DNA of 64,000 nucleotides, from contig OZ245817.1 in the NCBI GenBank assembly GCA_965228475.1, positions 3,200,001-3,264,000 of the forward strand, read 5' to 3'. A program made the position numbers and the translations under genes. Under the pieces are notes generated by a model, which saw only the letters and a program-made list of their open reading frames with translations, had not been told where the DNA came from and ran no database searches. This stretch comes from Myxococcota bacterium. Lineage in GTDB: Bacteria; Myxococcota_A; UBA9160; JAFDDA01. Shown piece by piece: positions 43,509-60,102 of the stretch (position 1 is its first letter; every line of letters starts with the position of its first letter).

Positions 43509-45110
43509 GTGATGAGCCGATGGCTCCGGGGGCCGATCCTGCTTCTCGTCGTGGGCCTGCTGAGCCAGGGCACCACCTGCGCGACCGGGTCCGGCCCGAC
43601 GCCGCCCTCCATCTCCATCACCCTGAACGCCGTCGACGAGGACCTGAACGACCTCCTGGTGGTCCCGCCCTCGGGCTACGTGATCAACCTGGGCTTCACC
43701 GCGGGCACCTCGGCGGTCGCCCCGGCGACCCTCGACGTCCAGGCGCTGCAGTGGGGAACCGAGCTGCTGACGGATCTCTCGGGCGATCTCTCGGCGGACG
43801 CGAACGGTGCCGTGGGCATCGCGAGCACCGCCCTTCCGGCCGGCTCCTACACGCTCGTCGCCTCCGTGGAGGACGTCCAGGGCCGCGTCGGCGTCGCGAC
43901 CTACGAGTTTTCCGTTCGGGAGTACGTGACGGCGATGCCCCCGGTCGGAACCGGCCAGGTCATCTGGTACGACTTCACGGCCGACCGGGATGGCGATCTC
44001 GAGCCGGACTTCGCGGCCGACCTGCGCTTCTTCGGCCTCGGGTCCGAGACGGATCCCCACGGCCTGAACCCCCAGATCGAAGCCGACGTGATCGCTCGCC
44101 TCGTCTCCCGCGTCGAGAGCGCCTACTACGACCAGGACCCGGCGGGCCTCGGCGCCCCGGACCCGATCGACGTCACCTTCGTCACCGCCGACCCGGGCCC
44201 CGGCGACGTGACGCAGATCTGCATCGGCGGCGAGTACGCGAGCTACCCGAGCCTGATCGGCTCGATCCTGATCGACCGGAACAACCTCGCCAAGTCCGGC
44301 TCCGAGTGCGGAACGATCCCGCCGACGGGCGTCTTCGCCCGAGGCCTCCAGACCTACGTCGGAAACATCGGCTTCGACAATCAGTTCAGCCCGGTGATGC
44401 CGACCCTCTCCGGCACGCCCGCCGGGGACCACCCGCTCGACCCGACGGTGCTCCACCCCTCCTTCGACCCCGGCACGGCCAGCACCGAGGAGGCGCAGCG
44501 CTACGACGAGCTCCAGACCGCCCTCGACGCCTTCGCCAACGCCCTCGGCAGCATCGTCGCCCACGAGACCGGCCACGCCCTCGGGCTCACCGAGCCGGGT
44601 CCGCCCGGCGGCGGCCTCCACGGCGGGACCAGCGGCTACGCCTTTTCCCACAACGTCCAGGTCGACGGGGTCTCCGCTCCGGCCGAACCCTGGCTGATGA
44701 ACGCGGGCAACACCCTCTCCTTCTCCCAGCTCTCGGGGGACGGCTTCCCGCTGCCGACCTTCCGCCCGCTCTCCCACGCGTACCTGCGCGACCGGGTCGT
44801 TCAGGACCCGGACGTGACGGCGCTCCTCAACCCACCCATCGTGGCCTCGGCGACACCCACCTTCGTGGTCAACACGATCGAGAACCTCGTGGTGCTCGGC
44901 GAGAACTTCGCAGCACCCCCGGTCGTGCGCCTCCAGAGCATCAACCTCGACTACACCTACAACGTCGTCGGGGAGAGCCTCGTCTCGCCGAACGAGATCC
45001 ACGGCCTGATCCTCGACGTCCAGCTGCCGGCCGGCATCTACTGGGTCGAGGTCGTGAACCCGGACGGGCAGGTCTCGGCGCCGCTGACGGCCTACATCGT
45101 CAAGTTCTAG
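43509..45110 (+). CDS. Exported zinc metalloprotease-like protein flanked by Ig-like domains
   Basis: Signal peptide ending in Cys, HETGHALGL, WLMN Met-turn, C-terminal VVNPDG. Confidence 0.65.
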   Translation: MMSRWLRGPILLLVVGLLSQGTTCATGSGPTPPSISITLNAVDEDLNDLLVVPPSGYVINLGFTAGTSAVAPATLDVQALQWGTELLTDLSGDLSADANGAVGIASTALPAGSYTLVASVEDVQGRVGVATYEFSVREYVTAMPPVGTGQVIWYDFTADRDGDLEPDFAADLRFFGLGSETDPHGLNPQIEADVIARLVSRVESAYYDQDPAGLGAPDPIDVTFVTADPGPGDVTQICIGGEYASYPSLIGSILIDRNNLAKSGSECGTIPPTGVFARGLQTYVGNIGFDNQFSPVMPTLSGTPAGDHPLDPTVLHPSFDPGTASTEEAQRYDELQTALDAFANALGSIVAHETGHALGLTEPGPPGGGLHGGTSGYAFSHNVQVDGVSAPAEPWLMNAGNTLSFSQLSGDGFPLPTFRPLSHAYLRDRVVQDPDVTALLNPPIVASATPTFVVNTIENLVVLGENFAAPPVVRLQSINLDYTYNVVGESLVSPNEIHGLILDVQLPAGIYWVEVVNPDGQVSAPLTAYIVKF

Positions 45111-45192
45111 CCTCGTCGAGCCCCAAGAGCCCTTCGCCAAGCAAAGCCGGATACGGTAGCCTTTTCGGGCACTTCCCCGACAGAGGCCCCAC

Positions 45193-47190
45193 ATGAGCGA
45201 AGCCCGACGAGACCGCCCCTGGGTGTTCCGGACCTACTCCGGCCACTCCTCCGCCAAGGCCAGCAACGAGCTCTACCGCAAGAACCTCGGCAAGGGGCAG
45301 ACGGGCCTCTCCGTCGCCTTCGATCTGCCGACGCAGACGGGCTACGACGCGGACCACCCCCTCGCCCGCGGCGAGGTCGGCAAGGTCGGCGTACCGGTCG
45401 GCTCGATCGAGGACATGGAGACCCTGTTCCAGGAGATCCCGCTCGATCAGATGAACACGTCCATGACCATCAACGCGACGGCGGCCTGGCTGCTCTCGCT
45501 CTACGTGGCCACGGGCGAGCGACAGGGCGCCGACCCGAAGTCGCTGCAGGGCACGACCCAGAACGACATCGTGAAGGAGTACCTCTCGCGCGGGACCTAC
45601 ATCTTCCCGCCCGAGCCCTCGATGCGGCTGATCAGCGACATGGTGGCCTACACCGTCGACGCGATCCCGAAGTGGAACCCGATCAACATCTGCTCGTACC
45701 ACCTCCAGGAAGCCGGCGCGACGCCGGTCCAGGAAATCGCCTTCTCCTTCGCGAACGCCGTCGCCGTGCTCGACGCCGTACGCGAGCGCGACGACGTCCC
45801 CGACGAGGTCATCCCCAAGGTCTTCAGCCGCATCTCGTTCTTCCTGAACTCGGGCATCCGCTTCGTGGAAGAGATCTGCAAGGCCCGCGCGATGGCGGAG
45901 CTCTGGGATCAGCTCGGCCGGGAACGCTACGGCGTCGAAGAGCCGAAGCTCCGGCGCTTCCGCTACGGCGTCCAGGTGAACAGCCTCGGCCTGACGGAAG
46001 CCCAGCCGGAGAACAACGTGATCCGGATCGTGCTCGAGGCGCTCGGCGTCACGTTCTCGAAGAAGGCCCGCTGCCGGGCGCTCCAGCTCCCGGCCTGGAA
46101 CGAGGCCCTGGGCCTGCCGCGCCCCTGGGACCAGCAGTGGTCGCTCCGCATCCAGCAGATCCTCGCCTACGAGACGGACCTGCTCGAATACGAGGACCTC
46201 TTCGACGGCTCCCACGTGGTGGAAGCCAAGAGCCGGGAGATGGCCGAGGAGGCGACCGCCGAGCTCGAGAAGATCCAGTCCATGGGTGGCGCGGTCGCCG
46301 CCGTCGAGAACGCCTACATGAAGCAGCGGCTCGTCGAGTCCCACGCCCGGCGCGTGCGCTCGATCGAGACCGGCGACCTCCAGGTCGTCGGCATGAACTG
46401 CTTCACCCAGGCGGAGCCCTCGCCGCTCACCTCGGGCGAGCAGCACATCCTGAAGGTCGACGATACGGCCGAGCACGAGCAGATCGAGCGGCTGAACGCC
46501 TTCCGCAACAAGCGCAACGCGAAGGACGCCGAGGCGGCGCTCACGGGCCTCGTCGACGCGCTCAAGAACGGCGACAACGTGATGCCGCCCTCGATTCGCG
46601 CCGCCCACGCGGGCGTCACCACCGGAGAATGGGCCGACGCCCTGCGCAAGCTCTTCGGCGAGTTCCGGGCGCCGACCGGCGTCGCCGGCCAGAGCGCGGC
46701 GGCGGACGCGGAATCCGTGGCCGAGGTCCGCGCCCGGGTCACGGCCCTCGGCGAAAAGATGGGGCGCCCGCTCAAGATCCTGGTCGGCAAGCCGGGCCTC
46801 GATGGCCACAGCAACGGCGCCGAGCAGATCGCCGTGAAGGCACGGGACGTGGGCATGGAGGTCGTCTACGACGGCATCCGCCTCACGCCGGAGCAGATCG
46901 TGCAATCGGCGCGGGACGAGGGCGTCCACGTGATCGGCCTCTCGATCCTCTCGGGCTCCCACGGCGTGCTCGTCCTCGACGTGCTCGACGCGCTCCGCAA
47001 GGAAGGCCTCGAATCGCTGCCGGTCATCGTCGGCGGCATCATCCCCGACGACGACGCGGAGAAGCTCCGCAGCGCGGGTGTGGAGCGCGTCTACACGCCG
47101 AAGGACTTCGAGCTCACCAAGATCATGAGCGAAGTGGTCGACGTCGTTGCCGCTTCGAGCGCCGACACCGAGGCCCACGCTGCCGGCTGA
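45193..47190 (+). CDS. meaA: Ethylmalonyl-CoA mutase (MeaA/Ecm), B12-dependent
   Basis: DRPWVFRTYSGHSSAKASNELY, YGVQVNSLGLTEAQPENN, QLPAWNEALGLPRPWDQQWSLR, GLDGHSNGAEQI. Confidence 0.93.
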   Translation: MSEARRDRPWVFRTYSGHSSAKASNELYRKNLGKGQTGLSVAFDLPTQTGYDADHPLARGEVGKVGVPVGSIEDMETLFQEIPLDQMNTSMTINATAAWLLSLYVATGERQGADPKSLQGTTQNDIVKEYLSRGTYIFPPEPSMRLISDMVAYTVDAIPKWNPINICSYHLQEAGATPVQEIAFSFANAVAVLDAVRERDDVPDEVIPKVFSRISFFLNSGIRFVEEICKARAMAELWDQLGRERYGVEEPKLRRFRYGVQVNSLGLTEAQPENNVIRIVLEALGVTFSKKARCRALQLPAWNEALGLPRPWDQQWSLRIQQILAYETDLLEYEDLFDGSHVVEAKSREMAEEATAELEKIQSMGGAVAAVENAYMKQRLVESHARRVRSIETGDLQVVGMNCFTQAEPSPLTSGEQHILKVDDTAEHEQIERLNAFRNKRNAKDAEAALTGLVDALKNGDNVMPPSIRAAHAGVTTGEWADALRKLFGEFRAPTGVAGQSAAADAESVAEVRARVTALGEKMGRPLKILVGKPGLDGHSNGAEQIAVKARDVGMEVVYDGIRLTPEQIVQSARDEGVHVIGLSILSGSHGVLVLDVLDALRKEGLESLPVIVGGIIPDDDAEKLRSAGVERVYTPKDFELTKIMSEVVDVVAASSADTEAHAAG

Positions 47191-48160
47191 GCTCGCCAGG
47201 CGCCTGGCCGCGCGGGAGCGCGCCGCGGTCCCCGAGGCCTTGAATCTGCTCGACGACCGCCGGCCGCACCGCCGCGCGGAAGCGCTCGCGATGCTCGACG
47301 CCCTCGCCGAAGCCAAGGCCGGAGAATCGACGCCGCGCGTCGGAGTGACCGGCGCGCCGGGCGCCGGCAAGTCGACCCTGCTCGACGCCCTGGTGCGCGC
47401 GATCCGTGCGAAGGACGAGACCGTCGGCATCGTCGCCGTCGACCCCTCGAGCCAGCGCAGCGGCGGCGCCCTGCTCGGCGATCGCTTCCGCGTGCGCTCC
47501 GGCGCGAGCGACCCGGGCGTCTTCATCCGCAGCATGGCCGCCCGGGAGAAGCTCGGCGGCCTCGCCGACGGGACGTGGGCGGCGGTGACGGTCCTGGCCG
47601 CGGTGTTTGACCGCGTGTTCGTCGAGACCGTGGGCGTCGGGCAATCCGAGGGCGACGTCGCGGATCTCGTCGATACGCTCGTCTTCGTGGCGCAGCCGGG
47701 CGCTGGCGACGTGCTCCAGTTCATGAAGGCCGGGGTGCTCGAGCTGCCGGACCTGTTCGTCGTGAACAAGGCGGACCTCGGAGCTCCCGCCGAGCGCACG
47801 GCCCACGAGCTCGAAGCGGGGCTCGGCCTCGCCGAGAGCGACCGCGCCGGCTTCGGCCTGCGCGTCCTGCGCGCCTCGGCCCGGGACGGGAGCGGACTCG
47901 AAGAGCTCGTCGCGGCCCTCGACGCCCACGCCCAGCACCTGGCCGAGTCCGGCGCCCTCGCGGCCCGGCGAAGCCGCGCCCGCCGGACCCTCGTCGGCGA
48001 CGGCCTCCGCGCCCGCTACGGAAGCTACGGAGTCGAGGCCCTCGGCGGGGCCCAGGCCGTCGAAGCCCGGCTCGACGCCGACCCCGACCGCTCGCCCTTC
48101 GCCTGGCTCCGCGAACTCGGCGCCGAGGTCGAAGAGGCGCTGCGGAAGCCCTCCTCGTGA
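47147..48160 (+). CDS. meaB: MeaB/ArgK GTPase, mutase chaperone
   Basis: GAPGAGKST, AVDPSS, GGALLGDR, ETVGVGQSE, NKAD; start uncertain. Confidence 0.9.
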   Translation: MPLRAPTPRPTLPAELARRLAARERAAVPEALNLLDDRRPHRRAEALAMLDALAEAKAGESTPRVGVTGAPGAGKSTLLDALVRAIRAKDETVGIVAVDPSSQRSGGALLGDRFRVRSGASDPGVFIRSMAAREKLGGLADGTWAAVTVLAAVFDRVFVETVGVGQSEGDVADLVDTLVFVAQPGAGDVLQFMKAGVLELPDLFVVNKADLGAPAERTAHELEAGLGLAESDRAGFGLRVLRASARDGSGLEELVAALDAHAQHLAESGALAARRSRARRTLVGDGLRARYGSYGVEALGGAQAVEARLDADPDRSPFAWLRELGAEVEEALRKPSS

Positions 48161-48173
48161 CGGTGTCGCGCCC

Positions 48174-49334
48174 TTGGTGAAGTCCGCGATCCGGCCGGCC
48201 CGGGTACGCCGCATCCTCGAGCGCACGCTCGAGAACCCGACGGCGCCGTACCGCGAAGGCTGCGTGATCGGCTGGGTGCGCGAGTTCATCGAGGGCTGCG
48301 AGCACCTTCGCCTGCGCGAGGACGCCGACGGGAACCTCTACGTGAGCCGGCGCGGGGTGCGCGCGAGCCGCCGGCCTCTCGTCCTCGCCGCGCACATGGA
48401 CCATCCGGGGTTCCGGGCGATCCGCTCGAAGCCCGCCCGCGGCGGCCACCGGGTCGAGGCACTCTTCCTCGGTGGGGTCCGGCCTTCCTACTTTCCCGGA
48501 GCGCGCGTGCGCTTCCACACCGAGCTCGAGAGCGGCGGCCGCGGCGTGGCAGCCCGGGTCCGCAGCACGAAGCCGGACCCGCGCAGCGGCGAGCAGCGCG
48601 TCGTGCTCGATGCGCGTGCGCCCGTTCCCGCCGGCGCCTTCGGAACCTGGGACCTGCCGGGCTTCCGCATCTCGCGCCGCAACCCGGACCTCGTCGAGAC
48701 CCGCGCCGCGGACGATCTCGCCGGCCTGGCGGGCATCCTCACCGTCCTCGAGGCGGCCGACACCATCGACCCGAAGCGCCGCGTCGACGTCCGCGCGCTC
48801 TTCACGCGCGCCGAGGAGGTCGGCTTCGTCGGTGCCCTGGCCGTCGCCAAGGGACGGCGCATCCCGAAGGGCTCGCGCATCGTGGCGGTCGAGGCCAGCA
48901 AGGCGCTCGTGAACGCACGCCAGGGGGACGGGCCGATCCTCCGCGTGGGCGACCGCACGAGCCTCTTCGACGACCGGCTCACGCGCTGGGCCGCGGGCGT
49001 CGGGACGGCCCTCGAGGGCCGCGGCCGCTTCCGCTTTCAGCGAAAGCTCATGGACGGCGGCGCCTGCGAAGCCACCGCGCTGCAGCAGTACGGCTACCGC
49101 TGCATCGGCATGTGCCTGCCGCTCGGCAACTACCACAACATGAGCGAGCGCGGCCGCATCGCAGTCGAGACCATCCGGCTCTCGGACCAGGTCGGCCTCG
49201 TGCGCTTCTTCGAAGGCCTCGTGCGTGCCGGCGGCGACGCCCCGCGCCCCGGCAGCCCCGACCCGCTGCGCAAACGGCTCGACCGCATCCACGCGCGAGG
49301 ACGCAAGGAACTCGCGCGCGACCCGTTCGCGTGA
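48174..49334 (+). CDS. M20/M42-type metallopeptidase
   Basis: AHMDHPG, ADDLAG, AEEVG, GGACE, YHN. Confidence 0.8.
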   Translation: MVKSAIRPARVRRILERTLENPTAPYREGCVIGWVREFIEGCEHLRLREDADGNLYVSRRGVRASRRPLVLAAHMDHPGFRAIRSKPARGGHRVEALFLGGVRPSYFPGARVRFHTELESGGRGVAARVRSTKPDPRSGEQRVVLDARAPVPAGAFGTWDLPGFRISRRNPDLVETRAADDLAGLAGILTVLEAADTIDPKRRVDVRALFTRAEEVGFVGALAVAKGRRIPKGSRIVAVEASKALVNARQGDGPILRVGDRTSLFDDRLTRWAAGVGTALEGRGRFRFQRKLMDGGACEATALQQYGYRCIGMCLPLGNYHNMSERGRIAVETIRLSDQVGLVRFFEGLVRAGGDAPRPGSPDPLRKRLDRIHARGRKELARDPFA

Positions 49335-49353
49335 GCAAGACAAGGCTCATACG

Positions 49354-49590
49354 ATGAAGGCGCTGCGTTCCCTGCTCCTGATGATGGGGCTCTCGCTGGC
49401 CTTCGGCCTGGTCCTAGGAACCTGCGTCCGGCGGGGCGCCGAGGCGCCCGTCCGCTACATCGGCGAACGCGAGGCGCCCGGGGCCTCAGCCCTTGCGGCC
49501 GGTCCAGGGCACGTCGGGCACGCCGGCCCGGCGGTTCTCGACGCGCGCCATCACGAACAGCAGGTCCGAGAGCCGGTTCACGTAGCGTAG
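49354..49590 (+). CDS. Possible small membrane protein
   Basis: MKALRSLLLMMGLSLAFGLVLGTCVRR single TM; 3' end overlaps the convergent gene by about 105 nt. Confidence 0.4.
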   Translation: MKALRSLLLMMGLSLAFGLVLGTCVRRGAEAPVRYIGEREAPGASALAAGPGHVGHAGPAVLDARHHEQQVREPVHVA

Positions 49591-50043
49591 GGCGACCGGG
49601 TCGAGCTCGTCTTCCCGCGCCAGGGCCACCGCTTCCCGCTCGGCCCTGCGGCACACCGTGCGCGCCTGATGGAACGCCGCCGCCGCGGCCGTTCCGCCCG
49701 GCAGCACGAAGGTCTTCAACGGCTCGAGCTCGCCTTCGAGCGCGTCGATCTGCTGCTCGAGCGCCACCACGTCCTCTTCGCTCGGGGCCGGGACGTCGTA
49801 CTTCTCGCGGTGGGCGGGGTCCGGCGTCGCGAGGTGCGCGCCGAGATCGAACAGTTCGCCCTGGATGCGGCGGCACGATGCCACGAGGTCCGCTTGGTCC
49901 GAGGCCGCGATCGCCACGCCGAGCACGGCGTTCAGCTCGTCGACGGCGCCGTAGGCCACGACGCGCTGGTCGTCCTTGCCGACCCGCTCGCCGCCGAACA
50001 GGTCGGTCTCACCGCCGTCTCCGCGCTTGGTGTAGACCTTCAT
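49486..50043 (-). CDS. Cob(I)alamin adenosyltransferase, PduO/MMAB type
   Basis: KVYTKRGDGGET, YGAVDELN, FVLPGG, RTVCRRAER, NRLSDLLF. Confidence 0.95.
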   Translation of the reverse strand: MKVYTKRGDGGETDLFGGERVGKDDQRVVAYGAVDELNAVLGVAIAASDQADLVASCRRIQGELFDLGAHLATPDPAHREKYDVPAPSEEDVVALEQQIDALEGELEPLKTFVLPGGTAAAAAFHQARTVCRRAEREAVALAREDELDPVALRYVNRLSDLLFVMARVENRRAGVPDVPWTGRKG

Positions 50044-50056
50044 GGTGGAGTCGCCG

Positions 50057-50515
50057 TCAGTCGGACGAGCGGCCGAGCTCCTCGTCGATCAGGCGTTCGA
50101 TCTCGGGATCGACGGGCGCCACCGCCGCCGCGGGCTCGGTCTTCGCCGAGGCCTGGGCCCCCTGCCGTCGCATGAAGACGAAGACGATCCCGCCTCCCAG
50201 AAAAGCCGCGAGCAGGGGAATCGCGTAGGCCATCAGGCCGAATCCCGTGGCTTCGGGGGCTTGGCGGATCTCGTCGCCGAACTCCGACAGGAGCTGCGAG
50301 TAGACGGCCTCGGGGTCCCGGCCCGCGGCCTCCTGACTCTCGATCCATTCCGCGAGATCAGCGGCCTGGGGGCTCGGGCAGTTGCGCAGCGTCCGGCCCG
50401 GGCAGTACGGGCTCATCAGCTCGTCGATCATCTCGCCGCTCCACGCCTCTTCGGCCGAAGCGAAGGCCGGAGCCGCGAGCGTGAAGAAGAGAAGCGCCGT
50501 CACGAGGAACCGCAT
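50057..50515 (-). CDS. CcmH/CycL-like cytochrome c biogenesis protein
   Basis: Signal peptide, LMSPYCPGRTLRNCPS, EFG, C-terminal TM. Confidence 0.7.
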   Translation of the reverse strand: MRFLVTALLFFTLAAPAFASAEEAWSGEMIDELMSPYCPGRTLRNCPSPQAADLAEWIESQEAAGRDPEAVYSQLLSEFGDEIRQAPEATGFGLMAYAIPLLAAFLGGGIVFVFMRRQGAQASAKTEPAAAVAPVDPEIERLIDEELGRSSD

Positions 50516-51420
50516 CAGATGTCCCAGTGCAGCTGGGGATCGTCTTCGTCCTCCCCCTGCTGCACGCGTTGGGCGGGCGGCTTGATCTGCACGCGCGTCC
50601 CCGCCGGCACCGACTCCGTCAGCCAGACGTTGCCGCCGATCACGCTCCCCGCGCCGATCACCGTGTCGCCGCCGAGGATCGTCGCCCCGGCGTAGATGGT
50701 GACGTCGTCCTCGAGGGTCGGGTGCCGCTTCTGGCCGCGGATCATCTTTCCGTCCGGGTCGCGCGGGAAGGAGAGCGCCCCGAGCGTCACGCCCTGGTAG
50801 AGCTTCACCCGGTCGCCGATCACCGTCGTCCCCCCGACCACGACGCCGGTGCCGTGGTCGATGAAGAAGCGCCGGCCGATACGCGCGCCGGGGTGGATGT
50901 CGATGCCATACCGGCAGTGGGCATGCTCGGTCATGATGCGCGGCAGGAGCGGCACGCCGAGCCCGTGAAGCTCGTGGGCCAGCCGCTGGATCGTGACGGC
51001 CTGGAGCGAGGGATAGGAAACCAGGATCTCGGCAAAGCTGCTCGCCGCCGGGTCGCCTTCGTAGGCCGCCTCGACGTCCTCGGCGATGAGCGCCCGGACG
51101 GCGGGCAGCCGCCCGAGGAAGCGGTCGGTGACGTCGCTCGGCGACGCCCCGACGCCCTCGGGAAGCTGCTCGAGCAGCGCCGCGAGGCGGTCGGCCAGGG
51201 TCGCGAGCTCGGAGCGCAGGGCGTACCGGTCGCGCTGGAGCAGCAGCACCTGCCGGACGCGGTCGGTCCAGAGGATCACGCCCTCGGGATCCGGAAATCC
51301 CTCGGCGATGGCCTTGGCGAGGGCGTCGTCGCCACCGCCGGCCAGGGCTTCGATGGTTTCATCGAGCACGGATTGCGAGAAGACCTCCGCGTGGTCCTGG
51401 AATCGACGGGCTTCCTGCAT
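50515..51420 (-). CDS. cysE: Serine O-acetyltransferase (CysE/EpsC type)
   Basis: GDPAA, GIDIHPGA, IDHGTG, YQGVTLG, KRHPT. Confidence 0.9.
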   Translation of the reverse strand: MQEARRFQDHAEVFSQSVLDETIEALAGGGDDALAKAIAEGFPDPEGVILWTDRVRQVLLLQRDRYALRSELATLADRLAALLEQLPEGVGASPSDVTDRFLGRLPAVRALIAEDVEAAYEGDPAASSFAEILVSYPSLQAVTIQRLAHELHGLGVPLLPRIMTEHAHCRYGIDIHPGARIGRRFFIDHGTGVVVGGTTVIGDRVKLYQGVTLGALSFPRDPDGKMIRGQKRHPTLEDDVTIYAGATILGGDTVIGAGSVIGGNVWLTESVPAGTRVQIKPPAQRVQQGEDEDDPQLHWDI

Positions 51421-51528
51421 GGGGCACTCCTGCCCATCCCCCGGAGAACGGCTCCGAGAGTGTAGCGAAGGGGCCGAAGCTGGCCGCCGCGGGGTGCCGG
51501 GGTGTTACGCTCGGGAGGGGGGACGGCC

Positions 51529-52467
51529 GTGGCGCTCGAAAACGAGTACTCCTGGTCGAAATCGCGGGACGGCAAGTTCCGGGAATGCCCGCGCGCGTAC
51601 TGGTTCCACTACTACGGCGCCTGGGGCGGCTGGAACGGCGACGCGCCCGATCGGGTCCAGACCCTCTACCGGCTGAAGAACCTGCGAAGCCGCCAGATGT
51701 GGGCGGGGGACGTCGTCCACCGCTGCATCGAGCGGGCGCTCAAGAACCTCCGCCGCGGGATCGAACCCATGGCCGCGGACGCCGCCATCGACGCCACGAT
51801 CCACACCATGCGCGACGAGTGGCGCCGCTCGCGCAGCGGCGCCGTGAAGGAGCGCCTGACCGAGCACGAGTACGACCTCCCGATCCCCGAGCTCGAGTGG
51901 CGGGACAACGCGGACCACGTGCGCCAGTGCCTGTGGAACTTCTACGCGTCCTCGAATTGGGAGACCCTGCGCAAGCTTCCGGCCGAGCGCTGGCTCGACA
52001 TCGAGAGCCTGGCCTCCTTCGTCTTCGAGGGGGCGAAGATCTTCGTGAAGCTCGACGTGGCCTACCGCGACGAAGCCGGCCGCGTCGTGATCATCGATTG
52101 GAAGACCGGCCGCGCTCCGGACCTCGACCACTCGATGCAGGTCGCCACCTACGCCCTCTACGCCGCCGAGGCCTTCGGCGGTGAGCCGAGCGACGTACGC
52201 ACCCGCCTGGCCCAGCTGGCCTCGGGCTCGAACGAGGACGTGACCCTCTCGGCCCAGGCGCTCGAATCCGCCCTCTCGCGCATCCGCGCGAGCATCCGCG
52301 ACATGCGCGAGGCCCTGGCCGACCCCGAGGCCAACCTCGCCCGCGAGGAGGACTTCCCGGCGATCGACCAGCCGCGGATCTGCCGCCGCTGCTCCTTCCG
52401 CCGGGTGTGTCAGGAGGAGGGAATCATCGCGCCGCTGCCCGGCCCGTCGGGGAACGGTTCCCTATGA
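51529..52467 (+). CDS. PD-(D/E)XK nuclease (Cas4/AddB/RecB-like) with 4-Cys Fe-S motif, copy 1
   Basis: ECPR, GDVVH, IES, LD, IIDWKTG, QVATY, CRRCSFRRVC. Confidence 0.88.
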   Translation: MALENEYSWSKSRDGKFRECPRAYWFHYYGAWGGWNGDAPDRVQTLYRLKNLRSRQMWAGDVVHRCIERALKNLRRGIEPMAADAAIDATIHTMRDEWRRSRSGAVKERLTEHEYDLPIPELEWRDNADHVRQCLWNFYASSNWETLRKLPAERWLDIESLASFVFEGAKIFVKLDVAYRDEAGRVVIIDWKTGRAPDLDHSMQVATYALYAAEAFGGEPSDVRTRLAQLASGSNEDVTLSAQALESALSRIRASIRDMREALADPEANLAREEDFPAIDQPRICRRCSFRRVCQEEGIIAPLPGPSGNGSL

Positions 52468-53336
52468 TGCGGAGCGTGGGCAAGATCTACAGCCACTCCC
52501 GCATCTCCACCTTCGAGAACTGCCGCCGCCAGTTCCGCTACCGCTACGTCGACCAGATCCCCGTCGAGACCGACGGCATCGAGGCCTTCATGGGCAAGCT
52601 CGTCCATGCCGTCGCCGAGAAGCTGAACCTCGTGACGGCCGCCGGGCAGGTGCCCTCGCTCGGCGCCGTCCTCAAGCGTTTCAACAAGATGTGGGACGAG
52701 AGCTTCGACGCGAGCCGCATCCGCATCGCCCGCGAAGGGATGGAGCCCGAGCACTACCGCGCCACCGGCGAGCGCTGCACGGAGAACCTCTACCGCAGCC
52801 ACTACCCCTTCGACGAAGGCGAGTCCGTCGGCATCGAAGAGCCCGTCCGCTTCGACCTCGACGCCGAGGGCCGCTACCGCCTGCGCGGCGTCGTCGACCG
52901 CATCGTACGCAAGGGCGAGACTATCGAGATCCACGACTACAAGACCGGCGCCCGCGTCCCGAGCCAGGCCCGCATCGACAAGGACCGCCAGCTCGCCCTC
53001 TACCAGATGGCGATCGAGGAACGCTTCCCGGACCAGCCCGTCGAGCTCGTCTGGCACTACCTCGCCCAGAACCAGGTGCGCCGCTCGCGGCGGACCCCGG
53101 AGCAGCTCGAGGCGCTGCGCCGCGAGACGATCGACCGCATCGACCAGATCGAAGCCGAGGTCGAATACAAGGCCACGCCGAGCGGCCTCTGCCCCTGGTG
53201 CGAGTACAACACCCGCTGCGAGGCCGGCCGCGAGCGGCTCGGCATCACGACCCCGCCGCCGCCCGACCCGCCGCCGAAGGCCTCGCGCGCCGCGAAGCCG
53301 CCGGCGGACGAGGGGCAGCTCTCCCTCTTCTCCTGA
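52464..53336 (+). CDS. PD-(D/E)XK nuclease (Cas4/AddB/RecB-like) with 4-Cys Fe-S motif, copy 2
   Basis: SHSR..NC, GKLVH, IEE, VDRI, HDYKTG, QLALY, CPWCEYNTRC; ATGA overlap with copy 1. Confidence 0.9.
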   Translation: MMRSVGKIYSHSRISTFENCRRQFRYRYVDQIPVETDGIEAFMGKLVHAVAEKLNLVTAAGQVPSLGAVLKRFNKMWDESFDASRIRIAREGMEPEHYRATGERCTENLYRSHYPFDEGESVGIEEPVRFDLDAEGRYRLRGVVDRIVRKGETIEIHDYKTGARVPSQARIDKDRQLALYQMAIEERFPDQPVELVWHYLAQNQVRRSRRTPEQLEALRRETIDRIDQIEAEVEYKATPSGLCPWCEYNTRCEAGRERLGITTPPPPDPPPKASRAAKPPADEGQLSLFS

Positions 53337-53355
53337 GCTTGCTAGCCTTCCGGCC

Positions 53356-54114
53356 ATGGCACTCCGCATCGAACGCATCCCGACCTTCGGCGACAACTAC
53401 ACCTATCTGATCCAGTGCGAGGAGACGGGCGAAGCCGCCGTCGTGGACGCCCCCGAGGACGCGCCGGTGATCGCGCGCGCCGAGGCCACGGGCGCCCGGG
53501 TGACGAAGATCCTCTCGACCCACCATCACCCGGACCACTCGATGGCGAACCCGAAGCTCGCCGAGCACTTCGGCGCGCCGGTCTACGGACACGTCTCGGA
53601 CGAGGGGCGCATGCCGGGGATGACCGACACGCTCGAAGAAGGCGACACGGTGAGCGTCGGGAACTCGACGGCGCGCATCCTCCACATCCCCGCGCACACG
53701 ACGGGCCACATCGCCTACGTCTTCGACGAAGACCGGGCGCTCTTCTCCGGCGACACGCTCTTCGCCGGCGGCTGCGGGCGTCTCTTCGAAGGCACGCCCG
53801 AGATGATGTACACGGCGCTGGTGGAGAAGCTGGGCTCGCTGCCCGACGACATGCGCGTCTTCTGCGGCCACGAGTACACCGAGAGCAACCTCGTCTTCGC
53901 CGTGCACGCCGAGCCCGACAACGCGGCGGCCGCCGAGAAGCTCGAGCGCGTGCGGAAGATCCGCGCGAACAAGGCCGAGGACTGGCACGACGCCACCGAA
54001 GCCGAGATGACCATCCCCTCGACCCTCGCCGAGGAGCGCGCCACCAACCCGTTCATGCGCGCGCGCGACGCGGCCGACCTCGGCCGGCTGCGCAAGATGA
54101 AGGACGACTTCTAG
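53356..54114 (+). CDS. gloB: Hydroxyacylglutathione hydrolase (glyoxalase II)
   Basis: DNY, THHHPDH, HTTGH, GDTLFAGGCGRLFEG, GHEYT, TNPFMR. Confidence 0.92.
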   Translation: MALRIERIPTFGDNYTYLIQCEETGEAAVVDAPEDAPVIARAEATGARVTKILSTHHHPDHSMANPKLAEHFGAPVYGHVSDEGRMPGMTDTLEEGDTVSVGNSTARILHIPAHTTGHIAYVFDEDRALFSGDTLFAGGCGRLFEGTPEMMYTALVEKLGSLPDDMRVFCGHEYTESNLVFAVHAEPDNAAAAEKLERVRKIRANKAEDWHDATEAEMTIPSTLAEERATNPFMRARDAADLGRLRKMKDDF

Positions 54115-54578
54115 CGGAAGATCGAGCCCAAGGTGCGGCGCAGGCCGCCCTGGAGTTGGTCCTCGGTCCAGGCGGTGACGCGCTGGATGGTCTCGAGGGC
54201 GTCGTTCTTGCCCGGCCAGTGCGAACGCACGACGTCCGGATGCACCCGGTTCAGCATGCGCGAGAGCGCCGTCCCGACGATCAGCAGGTCGTCGATGAAG
54301 CCGATCGGGCCGAGCAGGATCTCCGGCAGGATGTCGAGGGGCGAGAGCACGTAGCCGATGCCGAGCAGCGCGATGCCCTTCGAGCCGACGGGCACGCGCT
54401 CGTCGCGCAGGAGGCGCATCAGGAGCACGGTCAGGTCCGGTAGGAGCAGCATGAGATCGAGCAGCCCCGTCTCGACGGAACTCGGCTCGGCCACCTGGGC
54501 GCGCAGCCGGTCGTAGAGGCGGCGCTCGCTCGGGTTGAGCTCGATCGTGACGTGGCCGTCGGCGGCCTGGCTGCTCAT
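54111..54578 (-). CDS. DUF1232/YkvA family membrane protein
   Basis: YVLSPLDILPE, GFIDD. Confidence 0.85.
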   Translation of the reverse strand: MSSQAADGHVTIELNPSERRLYDRLRAQVAEPSSVETGLLDLMLLLPDLTVLLMRLLRDERVPVGSKGIALLGIGYVLSPLDILPEILLGPIGFIDDLLIVGTALSRMLNRVHPDVVRSHWPGKNDALETIQRVTAWTEDQLQGGLRRTLGSIFR

Positions 54579-55099
54579 CCGTCCTCCGCTCCCGTCGGTT
54601 CTACGGCCCAGCCGACCCGCCGGTTCCCCCCATCATAGGCGGCCACGAGGAAAACCGGTTCCTCGTCGGAGAAGGCCATGGGCAGGAGTTCCCGCACGTC
54701 CTCGACGAGAGGGAGTTCCCCCAACCCCGTCAAGGGTTTCCAGGCCACCTCGTGGCCCGGGCCGGGCTGCAGCTCCCTCGTTGCACTCTCCCCGGCGAAC
54801 ACGAAGACGACGTGGGCCTCGCCGAGGAGGCCGGACTCGTGGATCACGACGCGCAGCCGCAGGCCCGGCACGTCGAGCCCGGCTTCCTCGCGGAGTTCGC
54901 GGCGGGCCGCGGCGAGCACGCCCTCCCCCGCCTCGACGTGTCCCCCGATGCCGTTCCACAGACCGGGGAAGCGGGCGTTCGTTTCCGGGTTGCGGATCAG
55001 GAGCACGTCGTCGCCGTGGCGCACGAACGCCACCGTCACGAGATGCGCGCTGTGACGCGCTCCATCCGGCTTCGGCGGCCCGCCTCTGCTACCGGCCAC
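54575..55099 (-). CDS. NUDIX hydrolase
   Basis: GGHVEAGEGVLAAARRELREEAGL Nudix box; start estimated. Confidence 0.88.
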   Translation of the reverse strand: MAGSRGGPPKPDGARHSAHLVTVAFVRHGDDVLLIRNPETNARFPGLWNGIGGHVEAGEGVLAAARRELREEAGLDVPGLRLRVVIHESGLLGEAHVVFVFAGESATRELQPGPGHEVAWKPLTGLGELPLVEDVRELLPMAFSDEEPVFLVAAYDGGNRRVGWAVEPTGAEDG

Positions 55100-56570
55100 C
55101 GCGACCGCCGGCCACCGACGGCGGCGTGACGACGCCGACGAGCGCCCGCCCCTCGGCCTCGGGCACGACGACGCCGAGCGCGTAGGCAACGGTCGGTGCG
55201 ACGTCGATCTGGCGCATCTCCGGGATCCGGAGCGCGGGCCGGACGCCGGCGCCCCAGGCGACGAAGGCCGTCCGGTGCGGGAACCCTTCCGCCGGTGTGA
55301 AGGAACCCGCCGCACCTCGCGTCCGTGCGGGCAGCAGCAGCTGCCGCTCGGCGAGCCCCTCCGCGAAGCGGTGACCGGGCAGCGCCTCGAGCCCGAACCA
55401 GGCGCGACGGTCCGCACCGAGCGCGAGGAGTTCCTCGGCCGGAACGATGCGGAAGGCTCCGCTCCACTCCGCCGCTTCGGCGAGGGCGCGACGCGCGAGC
55501 AGGGCCGCCTCCTCGTCGTCGGCATACACGAGGGCGGAACCGCCGGCCGCGCGGGCCACCGCTTCCCAGCGCCGGATGCTGCCGTCCGCTGCCGGCACGA
55601 GCAGGCCCGCGGCCTCGAGCGCCACGTTGGCCTGGATGCGGGTGTGGACGGGGCGCACCGGGCCGTCGCCGGCGACGAAGAAGGCGCTCCGGGCGAGCGC
55701 CCCGGAGCCCGCGAGGCACGTCATCAACCGGGCGAGTTCCCGGTCGACCTGGGCGAAGGCCGCGCGGGCTTCCTCGCTGTCCGGACCGAAGCGCGCGAGC
55801 TGGGGCCACGCCTGGGACCAGCGAAGCAGCAACAGGCGCGGCGCCGCCTCGCCGGTGAGCACGTGGCACGCGACCTCCGTGAGCATGCGGTCGCGAACCG
55901 GGCCCGGGAAGCCCGCCTCGGGCGCGGCAGCGCCACTCTCCTCGATCCAGGCCGCGAGCGAGGGGGTCGCGACCCCTTCGAGCAGGGCCGGCCAGGACTC
56001 CCCGCGCCGGGTGGGATGGATCTCCGGCAGGAGCCAGTCCGCCGCGGCCCCGACGGAGGTCGGCCAGCCGACCCCCGCGGTGAGCAGGCCCGCGCCGCGC
56101 GCGGCGCTCCAGAGCGTCGGCCCGCGAACGGCCGAGGCCTCGCGCACGAGCTCCGCCGAGGCACCGTTCGGCCCGAGGCGGTGGTCTCCGCCGAGGCCGT
56201 GGCTCGCCGGGGACCGCCCGGTGAGGAGGGTCGCGTGGGCGACGCCCGGCGTCGCCGGCGCGGCGGGAACGAGTCCGTCGGCGACGGCCCCCGCGGCCGC
56301 CATGGCGGAGAGGCGGGGGAACGGGCCTTCCGGGCCGAGCCGGTCCGGCGTGAGGCCGGTGATCCCGATGAGGAGAACGTGGGCCGGCGCCCCGCGCTCG
56401 GGCTCCGGGAGGCGTGCTTCGCCACCTGCCGCCGGGCTCGCTTCAGCGGCAGGGGCGCGGTCAGGCCCGTCCGAACGCGGCGCAGCGCCGGCACAGCCGA
56501 GCCAGAGGCAGCAGGCGAACCCCACCCCGAAGAGCCGGCGCACGGAGCCCGGACCGCGGCGCGAGCTCAC
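55089..56570 (-). CDS. Alkaline phosphatase/NPP-fold lipoprotein, apparently lacking metal ligands
   Basis: Lipobox WLGC; HATLLTG..PASHG, VGWP, IDVAPTVA retained; GTGA overlap with patatin stop. Confidence 0.75.
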   Translation of the reverse strand: MSSRRGPGSVRRLFGVGFACCLWLGCAGAAPRSDGPDRAPAAEASPAAGGEARLPEPERGAPAHVLLIGITGLTPDRLGPEGPFPRLSAMAAAGAVADGLVPAAPATPGVAHATLLTGRSPASHGLGGDHRLGPNGASAELVREASAVRGPTLWSAARGAGLLTAGVGWPTSVGAAADWLLPEIHPTRRGESWPALLEGVATPSLAAWIEESGAAAPEAGFPGPVRDRMLTEVACHVLTGEAAPRLLLLRWSQAWPQLARFGPDSEEARAAFAQVDRELARLMTCLAGSGALARSAFFVAGDGPVRPVHTRIQANVALEAAGLLVPAADGSIRRWEAVARAAGGSALVYADDEEAALLARRALAEAAEWSGAFRIVPAEELLALGADRRAWFGLEALPGHRFAEGLAERQLLLPARTRGAAGSFTPAEGFPHRTAFVAWGAGVRPALRIPEMRQIDVAPTVAYALGVVVPEAEGRALVGVVTPPSVAGGRGGR

Positions 56571-57502
56571 GCCACCTCGTGGCGGAAGGCCGGCTCCACC
56601 TGGGCCGGCTCGGGTGCCCCGGGCCTGCCCGCCGCCGCACGGCGCCGCATGCGCTGGATCTCGCGTCGCGCGTCGGCGTAGCCCGCGGTGATGAGACGGC
56701 TCGTGCGGCGCGCGTTCCAGGAGAAGAGCGAGAGCGGGCTGAAGCCGGCGTGCTGCTCGCCGGGCTCGAGCACGGTCACCGGGACGCCCTGGTAGCTGCC
56801 GTCGCGGTCGATGCGCGTGGTCACGTAGCCGACGTTGCCGATCGTGCGCCACATGACGTCGGTCAGGCGGCCGTAGTAGTCGAACGGGGTGCGGAAGGTC
56901 CGCTTGTAGGGGAGATCGCTCGCGATCACGGCCAGGACGTACACCTCCGTCGCACCCATTTCGATGGCCTGGAGGACGGGAACGTTCCATGCGAAGCCGC
57001 CGTCGACGAAGTATTCGCCCTTGTGCTTCACGGGCGGGAAGAGGATCGGGATCGCGTACCCGGCCCGGGTGAGCGTGCGCGCCTCGCGCACGGAGCTCAT
57101 GTGGCGGTTGGTCGCGAACTGCCCCTCGCCCCGCGAGAGGTTCAGCAGGACGAAGGAGAGGTCGAGAGGCGACTCGATCACGCGCTTGAAATCGATGTAC
57201 TCCTCGATCGTCTCGGCGAGGGGCTCCATCGAGAAGAGCGACATGCCGGAGATCGGATTGTGCTTCCAGCTCGGGCGGAACTTCGTCGCCACCGAGCCCA
57301 TGCCCGTCCACGCCTCCTCCATGTGATCGACGCCGCCCGTCGCGTAGAGGCAGGCGTTGATCACGCCGATCGAGGAGGCGACGATCGCGTCGGGGCGGAT
57401 GCCCTGTTCTTCCAGGTAGCGGAGCGCGCCGACCTGATGCGCGCCGAGCGAAGCGCCGCCCCCGAGCACGAAGACGCGCCGGGGGCCCTCGGTTTCGCTC
57501 AC
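56567..57502 (-). CDS. Patatin-like phospholipase
   Basis: LGGGASLG, ASSIG nucleophile elbow, DGG. Confidence 0.85.
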   Translation of the reverse strand: MSETEGPRRVFVLGGGASLGAHQVGALRYLEEQGIRPDAIVASSIGVINACLYATGGVDHMEEAWTGMGSVATKFRPSWKHNPISGMSLFSMEPLAETIEEYIDFKRVIESPLDLSFVLLNLSRGEGQFATNRHMSSVREARTLTRAGYAIPILFPPVKHKGEYFVDGGFAWNVPVLQAIEMGATEVYVLAVIASDLPYKRTFRTPFDYYGRLTDVMWRTIGNVGYVTTRIDRDGSYQGVPVTVLEPGEQHAGFSPLSLFSWNARRTSRLITAGYADARREIQRMRRRAAAGRPGAPEPAQVEPAFRHEVA

Positions 57503-58374
57503 GTGAAGATGCCCTTGCGTTCGCGCAGGCCCTTCTCGAAGAGATCCTCGATGGCGTGGCGGACCTGGTTCACCTTGAGCTGGATCACGGCGTCTTCGTC
57601 GTTGGCTTCCCCTTCGAAGCGCAGCGGCGCGCCGAAGTGGATGCGGTACTTCGTCGGCATCGGGAGAATGCCGAGCGGACCGAGCCAGGGGAAACCGAGC
57701 GTGATCGGAAGCGCCGGCATGCCGAGCGCCTTCCCGAGCCCGGCGAAGTTCGCGATTCCCGGCTGCTGCTCCTCGGAGCCGATGAACGCCACCGGGACGA
57801 TCGGCGTGCGCGTCTCGAGCGCGAGCCGCATGAAGCCGAGGCCGAACTTCTGGAGCCGATAGCGCTCGCTGTAGGGCTTGTTGATCCCGCCCGCACCCTC
57901 GGGGAAGACCATCACGCACTCACCGTCCTGGAGCATGCTGCGACAGTTCTCCGGCGTCCCGATCATCATGCCGCCGCGCGTCGCGGCCGTGCTCATCCAG
58001 GGCAGGCGCGCGATGAAGTACTCGCCCATGCCGCGCACGATGCGCGGCGGCTCGCCCTCGAGCAGCATGGCGAGGGTCAACATCATGCCGTCGAAGGGCA
58101 GCTGGCCCGCGTGATTCGCGATCAGCAGCACGCGCCCGGGCGGGACGTTCTCGATGCCGAAGTTCTCGACGCGGAAGTAGTAGCGATAGAGCGCGAGCGC
58201 GGGCGGCATGAGCCGCAGCGCGTCCTCCGGGTTGAAGCCGTACTTGTCGAAGCCGTACTCGTTGAGCGGCGTCGGCGTCTTCTGGATGCGCTCGGCGAGC
58301 TCGCGCTGGAGCGTGCGGAACTCCATCGGCGCGAGGCCCGCGAGGGCGTCGCCGATCGCCCCGGTGATGCTCAC
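57499..58374 (-). CDS. Lysophospholipid acyltransferase (PlsC-like)
   Basis: NHAGQLPFD, FPEG, PIVPVA. Confidence 0.9.
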   Translation of the reverse strand: MSITGAIGDALAGLAPMEFRTLQRELAERIQKTPTPLNEYGFDKYGFNPEDALRLMPPALALYRYYFRVENFGIENVPPGRVLLIANHAGQLPFDGMMLTLAMLLEGEPPRIVRGMGEYFIARLPWMSTAATRGGMMIGTPENCRSMLQDGECVMVFPEGAGGINKPYSERYRLQKFGLGFMRLALETRTPIVPVAFIGSEEQQPGIANFAGLGKALGMPALPITLGFPWLGPLGILPMPTKYRIHFGAPLRFEGEANDEDAVIQLKVNQVRHAIEDLFEKGLRERKGIFT

Positions 58375-59288
58375 CCCTTCACCCCGTGGAAGATCTCGCG
58401 CAGCCCGAAGGCCGGCCGGAAGTTCGTCGCCTCGATGAAGCGCTTGCCCGAGAGCGTCACCGGGTACTTCAGGTAGTCGAGCGCACCCGGCGGGTACGGC
58501 CACATCCCCCAGTCGAACATGCGGGAGAAGAGCGGCCGGACCACGGGCTCGGGCAGCGGCATGGCCTGCCCACCGATCTCCTCGATCGCGGTGTGCAGCG
58601 GGACCTCGCCGGGCCCGGTCACGTTGAACACGCCGCGCAGCCCCGCCTCGAGGGCCCGGGCGATGGCCTCGGAGAGATCCTCCTCGTGGATGAACTGCAT
58701 CATCGGGTCGAAGCCCATCATCGTGGGGATGCGCTTCTGCTTCAGGTACTGGCTCATCATCGAGTGGACGAAGTACCCGAGCACGTTCACCGGCCGCAGG
58801 ACCGAGGTCTGGATGTGGGGGTACCGCCAGATGAACGCCGAGGCGAGCGTGTCGACCTCGACCAGGTCCCGGATCTCCGGATACGAGCGGCTGGCGGAGA
58901 TCGGGTGGTCCTCGTCCATGTAGAACGGGTTTTCGGGAAAGGCCCCGTAGACGTACCCGCTCGAGACCACCACGAGCTTCTGCACGCCGTAGTTGTTGCA
59001 GTGGTCGAGGAGCTGCTTCGTCCCGCGCACGTTCACGTCGTGGCGGGTGTTCTCCTGCCCCCGGAAATGCCGGATGAAGCCCATGTGGACGATGGCCGTG
59101 GGGAGCTCCGTCCGGATCACGTCCTCGAACTTCTTCTTGCGGAGGTCCACGACGTGAACGTCCACCTCGCGCGGGCGGCCCTCCCAGGCCACGCGATCCA
59201 CGCCCATGACCTGCCAGTTCTCGAGCAGGCGGCGCGCCAGGAGCCTCCCCTGGCCCCCCGAAATACCGGTGATGAGTACTTTTTCCAT
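58371..59288 (-). CDS. Extended SDR NAD-dependent epimerase/dehydratase
   Basis: TGISGGQG, NVRGT, SSGYVYG, GFDPMMQFIHEED. Confidence 0.85.
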   Translation of the reverse strand: MEKVLITGISGGQGRLLARRLLENWQVMGVDRVAWEGRPREVDVHVVDLRKKKFEDVIRTELPTAIVHMGFIRHFRGQENTRHDVNVRGTKQLLDHCNNYGVQKLVVVSSGYVYGAFPENPFYMDEDHPISASRSYPEIRDLVEVDTLASAFIWRYPHIQTSVLRPVNVLGYFVHSMMSQYLKQKRIPTMMGFDPMMQFIHEEDLSEAIARALEAGLRGVFNVTGPGEVPLHTAIEEIGGQAMPLPEPVVRPLFSRMFDWGMWPYPPGALDYLKYPVTLSGKRFIEATNFRPAFGLREIFHGVKG

Positions 59289-59385
59289 CGATTTCCTGCG
59301 GGTTTAGGGCCCTAGCGTACATGCTCCTGCGGCGGCGATCTACTCCGGGCCGTGTTATAACCGGCGCCCGGAAGGGGCCGTGCCG

Positions 59386-60102
59386 ATGGAGCCTGCCGCC
59401 AAATTTGAGGACATCTCGATCCCCGTCACCTCCGAGGAGGGGGATTTCGAGGTCAGCGGCGTCCTGGGCGTCCCGGAGTGGTGGCCGAGCGGCGCCCGGG
59501 TGGGCGTGATCCTGGCCCCGGGCACCGGAGGGCGCCACGACGACCCCTTCCTGACCGAGCTCCAGCGTCTCCTAACGGAGCGTAAGCTCCTGACCTTGAA
59601 GTTCAATTTCCACTTCGGGGAGGAGGGCCGGAAGCGCCCCGACTCGATGCTGGTGCTCCGCCAGACCTACCGGGCTGCGGTCCAGATGTTCTCGGCGGAC
59701 CCGACCTCGGCCCCGGCCCACGTCTTCGCCGGCGGGGTCGGCCTCGGGGCCAAGGTGGCCAGCCACGTGGCGACGAGCCGGGTCCGGGTGACCGGCCTCT
59801 ACGCCCTCGGCTACCCGCTCCACACGAGCGGCAAGCCCGAGAAGCTCGACGCCGACCAGCTCTACCGGATCATCACGCCGATGCTCTTCATCCAGGGCTC
59901 GAAGGCCAAGAACTGCGACATCCCGACCCTTCGCCGGGTGCTCGGCCGCGTGGGGGCGCCGACGGCGCTCCACGTCGTCGAGGAGGCGGACCACCTGTTC
60001 AAGGTCGCCAAGAAGTCCGGGCGGACCCAGGAGGAGGTCACGGCCGAATGCATGGCCGCCATGACCTCCTGGTTCGAAAAGGCGGCCGGCGCCGCCCAAT
60101 GA
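59386..60102 (+). CDS. Alpha/beta hydrolase fold protein (KANL3/Tex30-like), nucleophile absent
   Basis: KFNF, GGVGLG, LGYPLH..GKP, MLFIQG, ADH. Confidence 0.75.
   Translation: MEPAAKFEDISIPVTSEEGDFEVSGVLGVPEWWPSGARVGVILAPGTGGRHDDPFLTELQRLLTERKLLTLKFNFHFGEEGRKRPDSMLVLRQTYRAAVQMFSADPTSAPAHVFAGGVGLGAKVASHVATSRVRVTGLYALGYPLHTSGKPEKLDADQLYRIITPMLFIQGSKAKNCDIPTLRRVLGRVGAPTALHVVEEADHLFKVAKKSGRTQEEVTAECMAAMTSWFEKAAGAAQ

Follow-up and report, generated by a model that had tools for sequence, protein, structure and literature searches.

Two overlapping genes, here called P1 and P2, lie on the plus strand of a stretch of 64,000 nucleotides (nt) from a Myxococcota bacterium (NCBI GenBank assembly GCA_965228475.1, contig OZ245817.1, positions 3,200,001 to 3,264,000; hereafter the window), and each of them encodes a predicted stand-alone iron-sulphur (Fe-S) nuclease of the PD-(D/E)XK superfamily. 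Stand-alone nucleases of this Cas4/AddB-like kind are common, and almost all of them carry no annotation beyond 'PD-(D/E)XK nuclease family protein'.

Gene structure and conserved residues

P1 (51529..52467, 312 residues) and P2 (52464..53336, 290 residues) share the four letters ATGA (52464..52467), in which the ATG start codon of P2 begins at 52464 and the TGA stop codon of P1 occupies 52465-52467. The frame of P1 is open from 51502, and the GTG at 51529 is the preferred start codon; it yields the N-terminus MALENEYSWS, which agrees with MA-L-NE-SWS of the homologues in an alignment of 19 P1 family members (A1). A purine-rich, Shine-Dalgarno-like element read from the sequence, GGGAGGGGGGA (51513..51523, plus strand), ends 5 nt before this start codon.

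Both proteins match almost the whole Pfam profile PF12705 (PDDEXK_1; 247 positions) above its curated cut-off of 22 bits, P1 with 75.4 bits (8.7e-21, profile positions 2-247) and P2 with 131.5 bits (6.4e-38, positions 3-247). In P1, the residues expected of this module were read as codons on the plus strand and are invariant in A1, including Cys20 (TGC, 51586..51588), the N-terminal ligand of a 4Fe-4S 'iron staple', the catalytic D176...D190-W-K192 (52054..52104), the motif Q204...Y208, and the cluster cysteines C285-x2-C288-x5-C294 (52381..52410). The corresponding set in P2, which comprises Cys20 (TGC, 52521..52523), D145...D158-Y-K160 (52896..52943), Q176...Y180, and C243-x2-C246-x5-C252 (53190..53219), is likewise invariant in an alignment of 25 P2 family members (A2). 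Nuclease chemistry would thus be expected of both proteins from their invariant residues. P2 contains in addition a fifth cysteine beyond the four cluster ligands, Cys105 (52776-52778), which is invariant in 25/25 rows of A2.

AlphaFold2 models built from the family alignments reached a predicted local distance difference test score (pLDDT) of 93.4 for P1 and 86.5 for P2, and the best solved fold matches were the same for both and came in the same order: ACE1 (9IAB/9IAC), the nuclease domain of AdnA, Dna2, and AddB. By sequence, the solved relative nearest to the P1 profile (A1) was ACE1 (3.8e-7, C-terminal half only), and that nearest to the P2 profile (A2) was AdnA (7.6e-7). A direct BLASTP comparison of P1 with P2 gave nothing significant (E 1.3), and a profile-profile comparison gave a homology probability of 99.3% at an identity of only 20%, for which reasons the two genes appear to be old paralogues and not the products of a recent duplication. 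An insertion that is present in P1 and absent from P2 carries the invariant sequence YYGxWGGW, which marks P1 as a member of a solo family of its own. The gene overlap, the cysteine, DxK and QxxxY motifs, and the great difference between the two copies had all been pointed out in a preliminary description of this locus and are borne out by these comparisons.

A candidate clamp-binding tail in P2

Beyond the last cluster cysteine, P2 continues with a Pro/Ala-rich linker (residues 253-284, 53220..53315), which is unconserved in sequence and length and falls mostly into gapped columns of A2; in 99 homologues its length ranged from 18 to 100 residues, with a median of 32. The linker is followed by QLSLF (Q285-F289, 53316..53330), a candidate β-clamp-binding motif, and then by S290 and the stop codon. 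QLSLF equals the canonical clamp-binding consensus QL[S/D]LF as quoted in PMC13254535, and it lies in a terminus modelled with low confidence (pLDDT dropped in the final 20 residues, first to 55 and later to 36, and was below 50 for residues 278-290). Q285 and L288 are invariant in 25/25 rows of A2. When the tail motif was defined as Q-[LIVMF]-x-[LIVMF]-[FLWYM] within the last 15 residues, it was present in 99 of the 120 best P2 homologues, 39 of them with the strict form QLxLF, versus none of 120 P1 homologues, so that the match with the clamp-binding consensus noticed earlier for the single P2 sequence extends to most of its closest homologues. The 21 P2 homologues that miss the motif mostly have near variants (QLLLRL, QASLF, QLALPL, or the motif followed by 12 further residues).

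The genome encodes the β sliding clamp (DnaN), and its own Y-family polymerases carry motifs of the same type, namely QLPLF in a DinB-like protein, a QLELFGD end in a second polymerase, and QLDLF in an ImuB-like protein. A C-terminal QLxLF (within the last 10 residues) occurred in only 4 of 15,841 six-frame open reading frames of at least 150 residues; these four were P2, the Y-family polymerase with QLELFGD, an AAA_21 ATPase, and a YgjP/WLM-type metallopeptidase.

Several of these other frames, all of them outside the window, show further features. The ImuB-like frame (832 residues, with an internal QLDLF) is close to the DinB-like polymerase with QLPLF at C1:3174872-3180478, about 20 kb before the window, and the two are probably parts of a mutasome-type cluster. 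The YgjP-like/WLM-type metallopeptidase frame (C1:4621286-4621771, minus strand) has a Pro/Ala-rich linker followed by EQLALFR and could be a clamp-tethered protease; a metallopeptidase with a clamp-type tail is reminiscent of the eukaryotic DNA-protein crosslink proteases SPRTN and Wss1. The AAA_21/AAA_15 (AbiEii/RecF-like) ATPase frame (391 residues, C1:2976982-2978154, plus strand) ends in RRADQLVLFDL.

Distribution and linkage of the two families

P2 is near-universal in its order. Of 47 same-order genomes, 46 have an orthologue scoring at least 326 bits, as do all ten genomes of one further (sister) family of the class, with one copy each, and weak matches (about 110-120 bits) turned up in at least six of the remaining genomes among the 301 searched in the phylum; these phylum-wide counts are lower bounds, as the first-pass search was stricter. 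Within its order, P2 is a housekeeping gene passed on by vertical inheritance. Distant relatives with 24-25% identity were found in phages.

Modules resembling P2 also occur in larger proteins. Two single polypeptides, P0259 (1297 residues) and P0341 (1245 residues), contain five tandem P2-like nuclease modules each; in P0259 every module has its own CxxC-x5-C and most have D-Y-K-[TS], and P0341 was seen by domain hits only. These tandem-module proteins hold P2-like modules only. A search of the wider P2-like superfamily, defined as 661 clusters at E ≤ 1e-30, also yielded a set of 24 P2-like proteins of about 400 residues (alignment A3). Among the 145 cluster representatives with the cysteine pattern, 99 have an extra C-terminal domain of about 150 residues with a basic, LSKRK-like end, for which neither Pfam nor a sequence search for solved relatives gave a match. 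The clamp-type tail seems to replace this extra domain in the clade of P2.

The family of P1 has a different distribution. When species genomes were scanned with the P1 alignment, at least 573 relatives came up, distributed over many phyla; the groups named in the record titles include Planctomycetota, Verrucomicrobiota, Lentisphaerota, Acidobacteriota, and Latescibacterota, as well as Krumholzibacteriia, Thermodesulfobacteriota, Methylomirabilota, and Myxococcales. No longer or fused form of 547-2000 residues was found, although this is weak evidence. Neighbourhoods were analyzed in 80 P1 loci of other species, including at most 6 kb of flanking DNA per side. When the open reading frames within 5 kb were clustered, no family was found in more than 10 of the 80 loci, and the families that recurred were all housekeeping ones (lipoyl synthase, LipB, E2 acyltransferase, citrate synthase, kinase, and glycosyltransferase). 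The P1 family is therefore widespread but patchy, tail-less, and without a conserved partner.

Adjacency of the two genes is rare overall. A P2-family gene adjoins P1 in only 2 of the 80 P1 loci, one in a genome of the same genus and the other in a genome of a sister family of the order; conversely, P1 adjoins P2 at a single one of the 29 further P2 loci fetched from the own order. Among the 50 of the 80 P1-bearing genomes that were covered by a search for P2, 36 had no P2-type match at E ≤ 1e-10 and 11 had a P2-type gene of at least 236 bits, which was non-adjacent in nine of the 11 and, in one closed chromosome, lay 2.6 Mb away. Among 41 relatives, P1 was present in six, and in three of these it was only 33-34% identical and located on a contig other than that of P2.

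Within a narrow range of organisms, the pair is kept. A metagenome scan with P1 returned six contigs that carry a P1 of 71-75% identity together with downstream DNA, and P2 is the next gene in all six; the CTATGA junction is retained in the same-genus genome and in these six contigs. P2 was found in none of four further metagenome contigs whose P1 relatives had 33-46% identity and at least 2.3 kb of downstream DNA. In the sister-family genome, P1 ends with TAA and a gap of about 40-90 nt precedes P2, with no overlap. The pairing is thus real and stable, and it is confined to a narrow clade consisting of the own genus, the close metagenome contigs, and one sister family; outside this clade the families of P1 and P2 are solo and independent of each other. 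The preliminary description had proposed a heterodimeric, motor-less two-nuclease complex and had named neighbourhood conservation as a check. Conservation extends no further than this clade, and because the families are rarely adjacent outside it, the proposal is left unsupported.

Neighbouring genes and genome context

The pair is followed on the plus strand by gloB (hydroxyacylglutathione hydrolase, 53356..54114), which starts 19 nt past P2, scores 262.9 bits with TIGR03413 (cut-off 200.8), and is probably in the same transcription unit as P2. In 27 of 42 P2 loci (one place counted twice), P2 is followed on its own strand by a gene in the gloB frame, and other genes found near P2 in subsets of loci encode a thioesterase, a DUF1232 protein, a NUDIX protein, and an Mrp/NUBPL-type ATPase. 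Two P2-like modules are joined to both a metallo-beta-lactamase and an HD domain in P0249, a predicted protein of 2709 residues; for this protein and the gloB-P2 linkage, coincidence, a gene-calling artefact, and a functional link are all possible. On the other side, a divergent gene (50515..51420, minus strand) matches Hexapep and reaches 152.9 bits with the cysE model, which is under the cut-off of 210.65. Of the two housekeeping neighbours named at the outset, gloB is therefore upheld, and the supposed cysE can be described only as serine O-acetyltransferase-like. A scan limited to sigma-70-type sites found no sigma-70-like promoter, and no intrinsic terminator was found, in 51200-54400. 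The surrounding DNA has about 70% G+C, and the G+C content of the pair resembles that of its surroundings.

The absence of CRISPR, cas1, and an adjacent helicase that had been stated for this locus was confirmed: no CRISPR-like repeats were found in 44000-60000, there is no helicase beside the pair, and neither Cas1 (PF01867) nor Piwi had a match in the whole genome, which is a single contig and 96% complete. Genes for an AddA-like protein (1185 residues, UvrD helicase plus PDDEXK_1) and an AddB-like protein (1096 residues) are located at C1:3705157-3711997, about 450 kb off. The comparison with addAB suggested earlier can thus be answered for this genome: because an AddAB-type pair is encoded elsewhere, P1 and P2 replace none and are no substitute for a missing end-resection machine. 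MutL and both Pol I-type and FEN-type 5' nucleases are also present, and NucS_C was not found in the genome.

Proposed function and alternative explanations

The explanation favoured on balance, with modest assurance, is that P1 and P2 are independent stand-alone Fe-S nucleases of the AdnA/AddB/ACE1/Dna2 type, of which P2 is tethered to the clamp and takes part in replication-coupled repair. By analogy with these folds, each protein would most likely lead one strand of DNA along a narrow channel to the D...DxK metal site; because the fold is ACE1/AdnA-like, single-stranded DNA (ssDNA), flaps, and unwound ends would be cut rather than intact duplex, a preference suggested by fold analogy only. 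The motif and its conservation lead to the prediction that the C-terminal peptide of P2 docks in the hydrophobic pocket of DnaN, by which P2 might be held at clamp-marked primer-template junctions. It could there trim flaps or ssDNA ends in lagging-strand maturation, gap repair, or the processing of stalled or broken forks, although the choice of pathway is a guess. P2 would be an additional activity and not a replacement, since MutL, the Pol I-type and FEN-type 5' nucleases, and AddAB are present and NucS is absent. In the narrow clade, co-translation suggests that the two proteins are produced at the same time and perhaps share substrates, and nothing indicates an obligate P1-P2 complex. A bolder version, in which P2 is a motor-less, AdnA-like bacterial counterpart of the Dna2/EXO5-type flap nucleases that uses the clamp as both tether and track at replication forks or gaps and, together with a P1 recruited in the clade of this genome, forms a minimal helicase-free two-nuclease module for ends and flaps, seems rather unlikely.

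Several observations weigh against this explanation. The motif is absent from 9 of 28 complete own-order P2 tails, one subgroup having short PAFGG... tails, and many P2 tails end in L instead of the canonical F. Among cluster representatives of the wider P2-like superfamily it was rare, 9 of the 46 short-tailed and 2 of the 99 long-tailed ones carrying it. Its occurrences were clustered, which counts in favour of the explanation, on a tree built from the core domain only (157 of 171 rows, 14 having been dropped for length or a missing cysteine pattern): its presence required at least 8 changes versus a mean of 26.8 after shuffling, and none of 500 shuffles was as low. Clamp tethering would hence be clade-specific, since the motif is rare in the wider superfamily and clustered on the core tree, and the clamp-type tail appears to be mainly a trait of one clade and not of the whole family. 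The stable ATGA-coupled pair in the own genus and the close metagenome contigs also points to some functional link that two independent enzymes do not explain.

This coupling is the chief argument for an alternative in which P1 and P2 form an obligate heterodimeric, motor-less minimal AddAB/AdnAB, each subunit cutting one strand and the tail of P2 serving to bring the complex onto the clamp. Both active sites are intact, AdnAB and AddAB, which appear among the fold matches, are precedents with two Fe-S or PD-(D/E)XK nuclease modules acting on opposite strands, and the polypeptides with five tandem modules show that multi-nuclease arrangements occur. However, such an obligate partnership is difficult to reconcile with adjacency in 2/80 P1 loci and 1/29 other own-order P2 loci, with a P2 present in 46/47 genomes of the order against a P1 in 6/41 relatives, or with the 36/50 P1-bearing genomes without a P2-type match. 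The overlap gives way to a gap in the sister-family genome, the tandem-module proteins are made of P2-like modules only, no P1 fusion was found (weak evidence, as said), and an AddAB-type pair exists elsewhere in the genome. An obligate heterodimer is accordingly judged improbable, and a gene overlap in one lineage is in itself no evidence for it. A predicted complex of P1 and P2 (from A1 and A2) scored 0.00 versus a mark of 0.32, without controls, and was used neither for nor against binding.

Defence against phages or plasmids, by the pair or by P1 alone as a relative of ACE or of other Cas4-like defence components, would fit the full-length match of P1 to the PADLOC model Aga_Cas4-like_Nuc (6.2e-21), the weak Cas4 and DruK matches of both proteins, ACE1 as the best fold match of both, the distant P2 relatives in phages, and the report that many ACE genes sit in genomes without a prokaryotic Argonaute (pAgo; PMC12094033). 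It is considered very unlikely, however, in view of a genome with no Piwi-domain protein and no Cas1, the lack of CRISPR-like repeats nearby, housekeeping neighbours here as well as in 80 P1 loci and 42 P2 loci, Cas4 model scores (27 and 40 bits) that fall short of the cut-off of 65, a G+C content like that of the surroundings, and the single-copy, near-universal occurrence of P2 in its order, which is the pattern of a core gene. A further alternative leaves P2 a repair nuclease not tied to the clamp, its QLxL[F/L] tail acting either as a degron or as the docking site of some protein that is not DnaN. The motif is indeed short, and the frequent L in place of F would suit this idea; but the identity with the consensus quoted in PMC13254535, the same motif in the genome's own Y-family polymerases, and the rarity of a C-terminal QLxLF (4/15,841 frames, with one of the other three again a Y-family polymerase) make it distinctly unlikely.

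Comparison with known systems

P1 and P2 belong to the same superfamily as CRISPR Cas4 and share its cysteine pattern, and both match the Cas4 models (TIGR00372, PF01930) weakly; with TIGR00372 they reach 27.1 bits (P1) and 39.9 bits (P2), both under the equivalog cut-off of 65. They are, however, about 100 residues longer than Cas4 and have neither a cas1 nor an array. Proteins of the pfam12705 type have been treated as non-CRISPR Cas4-like proteins found in phages and helicase fusions (Hudaiberdiev et al. 2017, PMC5704561), and the two solo families are absent from the section of that paper on pfam12705 Cas4-like proteins.

In fold, the closest resemblance is to ACE1, an Argonaute-associated member of the Cas4 family, which is also a stand-alone protein of about 270-310 residues with a PD-(D/E)XK core, D...DxK, and a 1+3-cysteine Fe4S4 cluster (Foldseek: P1 2.9e-9, template modelling (TM) score 0.59-0.68; P2 3.5e-10, TM 0.60-0.68). 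With the PADLOC model Aga_Cas4-like_Nuc (PDLC02406), P1 scores 73.2 bits along its entire length and P2 only 24.3 bits. In contrast to P1 and P2, which have only 14-16% sequence identity to it, ACE1 works with a long-A pAgo and has been found only in cyanobacteria, and the present genome has no Piwi protein; the presence of a pAgo is not strictly defining, though, given the many ACE genes found without one. As an ssDNA endonuclease, ACE1 has its D-DxK site deep inside a channel that is too tight to admit duplex DNA, as in AdnA (PMC12094033), and, unlike for P2, no clamp-type tail is described for it in the accessible part of that paper.

The nuclease domains of AdnA (6PPR/9NP6) and AddB (4CEH/3U44) contain the same Fe-S 'iron staple' module as P1 and P2, but they are C-terminal domains in subunits of helicase-type heterodimers with more than 1000 residues, whereas P1 and P2 are single-domain and motor-less. 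Dna2 and EXO5 (5EAN, 7LW7), which act on ssDNA 5' flaps or ends, are also Fe-S PD-(D/E)XK nucleases recovered as fold matches of P1 and P2; they are eukaryotic, Dna2 comes with a helicase, and the matches are much weaker (TM 0.26-0.52). A cluster of actinobacterial 'putative RecB family exonuclease' proteins (Actinomycetota, about 302 residues, PF12705) is a look-alike of P2 on the basis of features and not of sequence comparison. One example of such an actinobacterial gene, rv2119, is called a recB-like exonuclease and was overexpressed when a recA mutant was treated with mitomycin C (PMC8151990), and no biochemical study of an Rv2119-type exonuclease was found in a literature search that had most subscription journals outside it.

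The nearest functional analogue of a clamp-tethered nuclease is EndoMS/NucS, a PD-(D/E)XK-type repair nuclease that belongs to another fold family than P2 and is not known to contain an Fe-S cluster. The activity of EndoMS/NucS depends on its interaction with the sliding clamp (PMC6159521, PMC8228993). Similarly, E. coli RecB, which resembles P2 in having a RecB-family nuclease domain with a clamp motif, binds the β clamp through its motif QVEMEF and the canonical pocket (PMC13254535); the difference is that the RecB motif is internal, becomes accessible only upon a conformational switch, and belongs to a motor of three subunits, whereas that of P2 stands at a free C-terminus with no motor. 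The same 2026 paper, which reported RecB as a new partner, called the bacterial clamp interactome incompletely defined, and the tail of P2, if it binds as predicted, would add a nuclease class to it. No report of a clamp-binding tail on a stand-alone Cas4/AddB-like nuclease was found in a literature search that left out most subscription journals. The superfamily of P1 and P2 is thus known, and what is new, provisionally, is the clamp-type tail on such a nuclease, which would place a near-universal family of this Myxococcota-like order in replication-coupled DNA processing in a testable manner.

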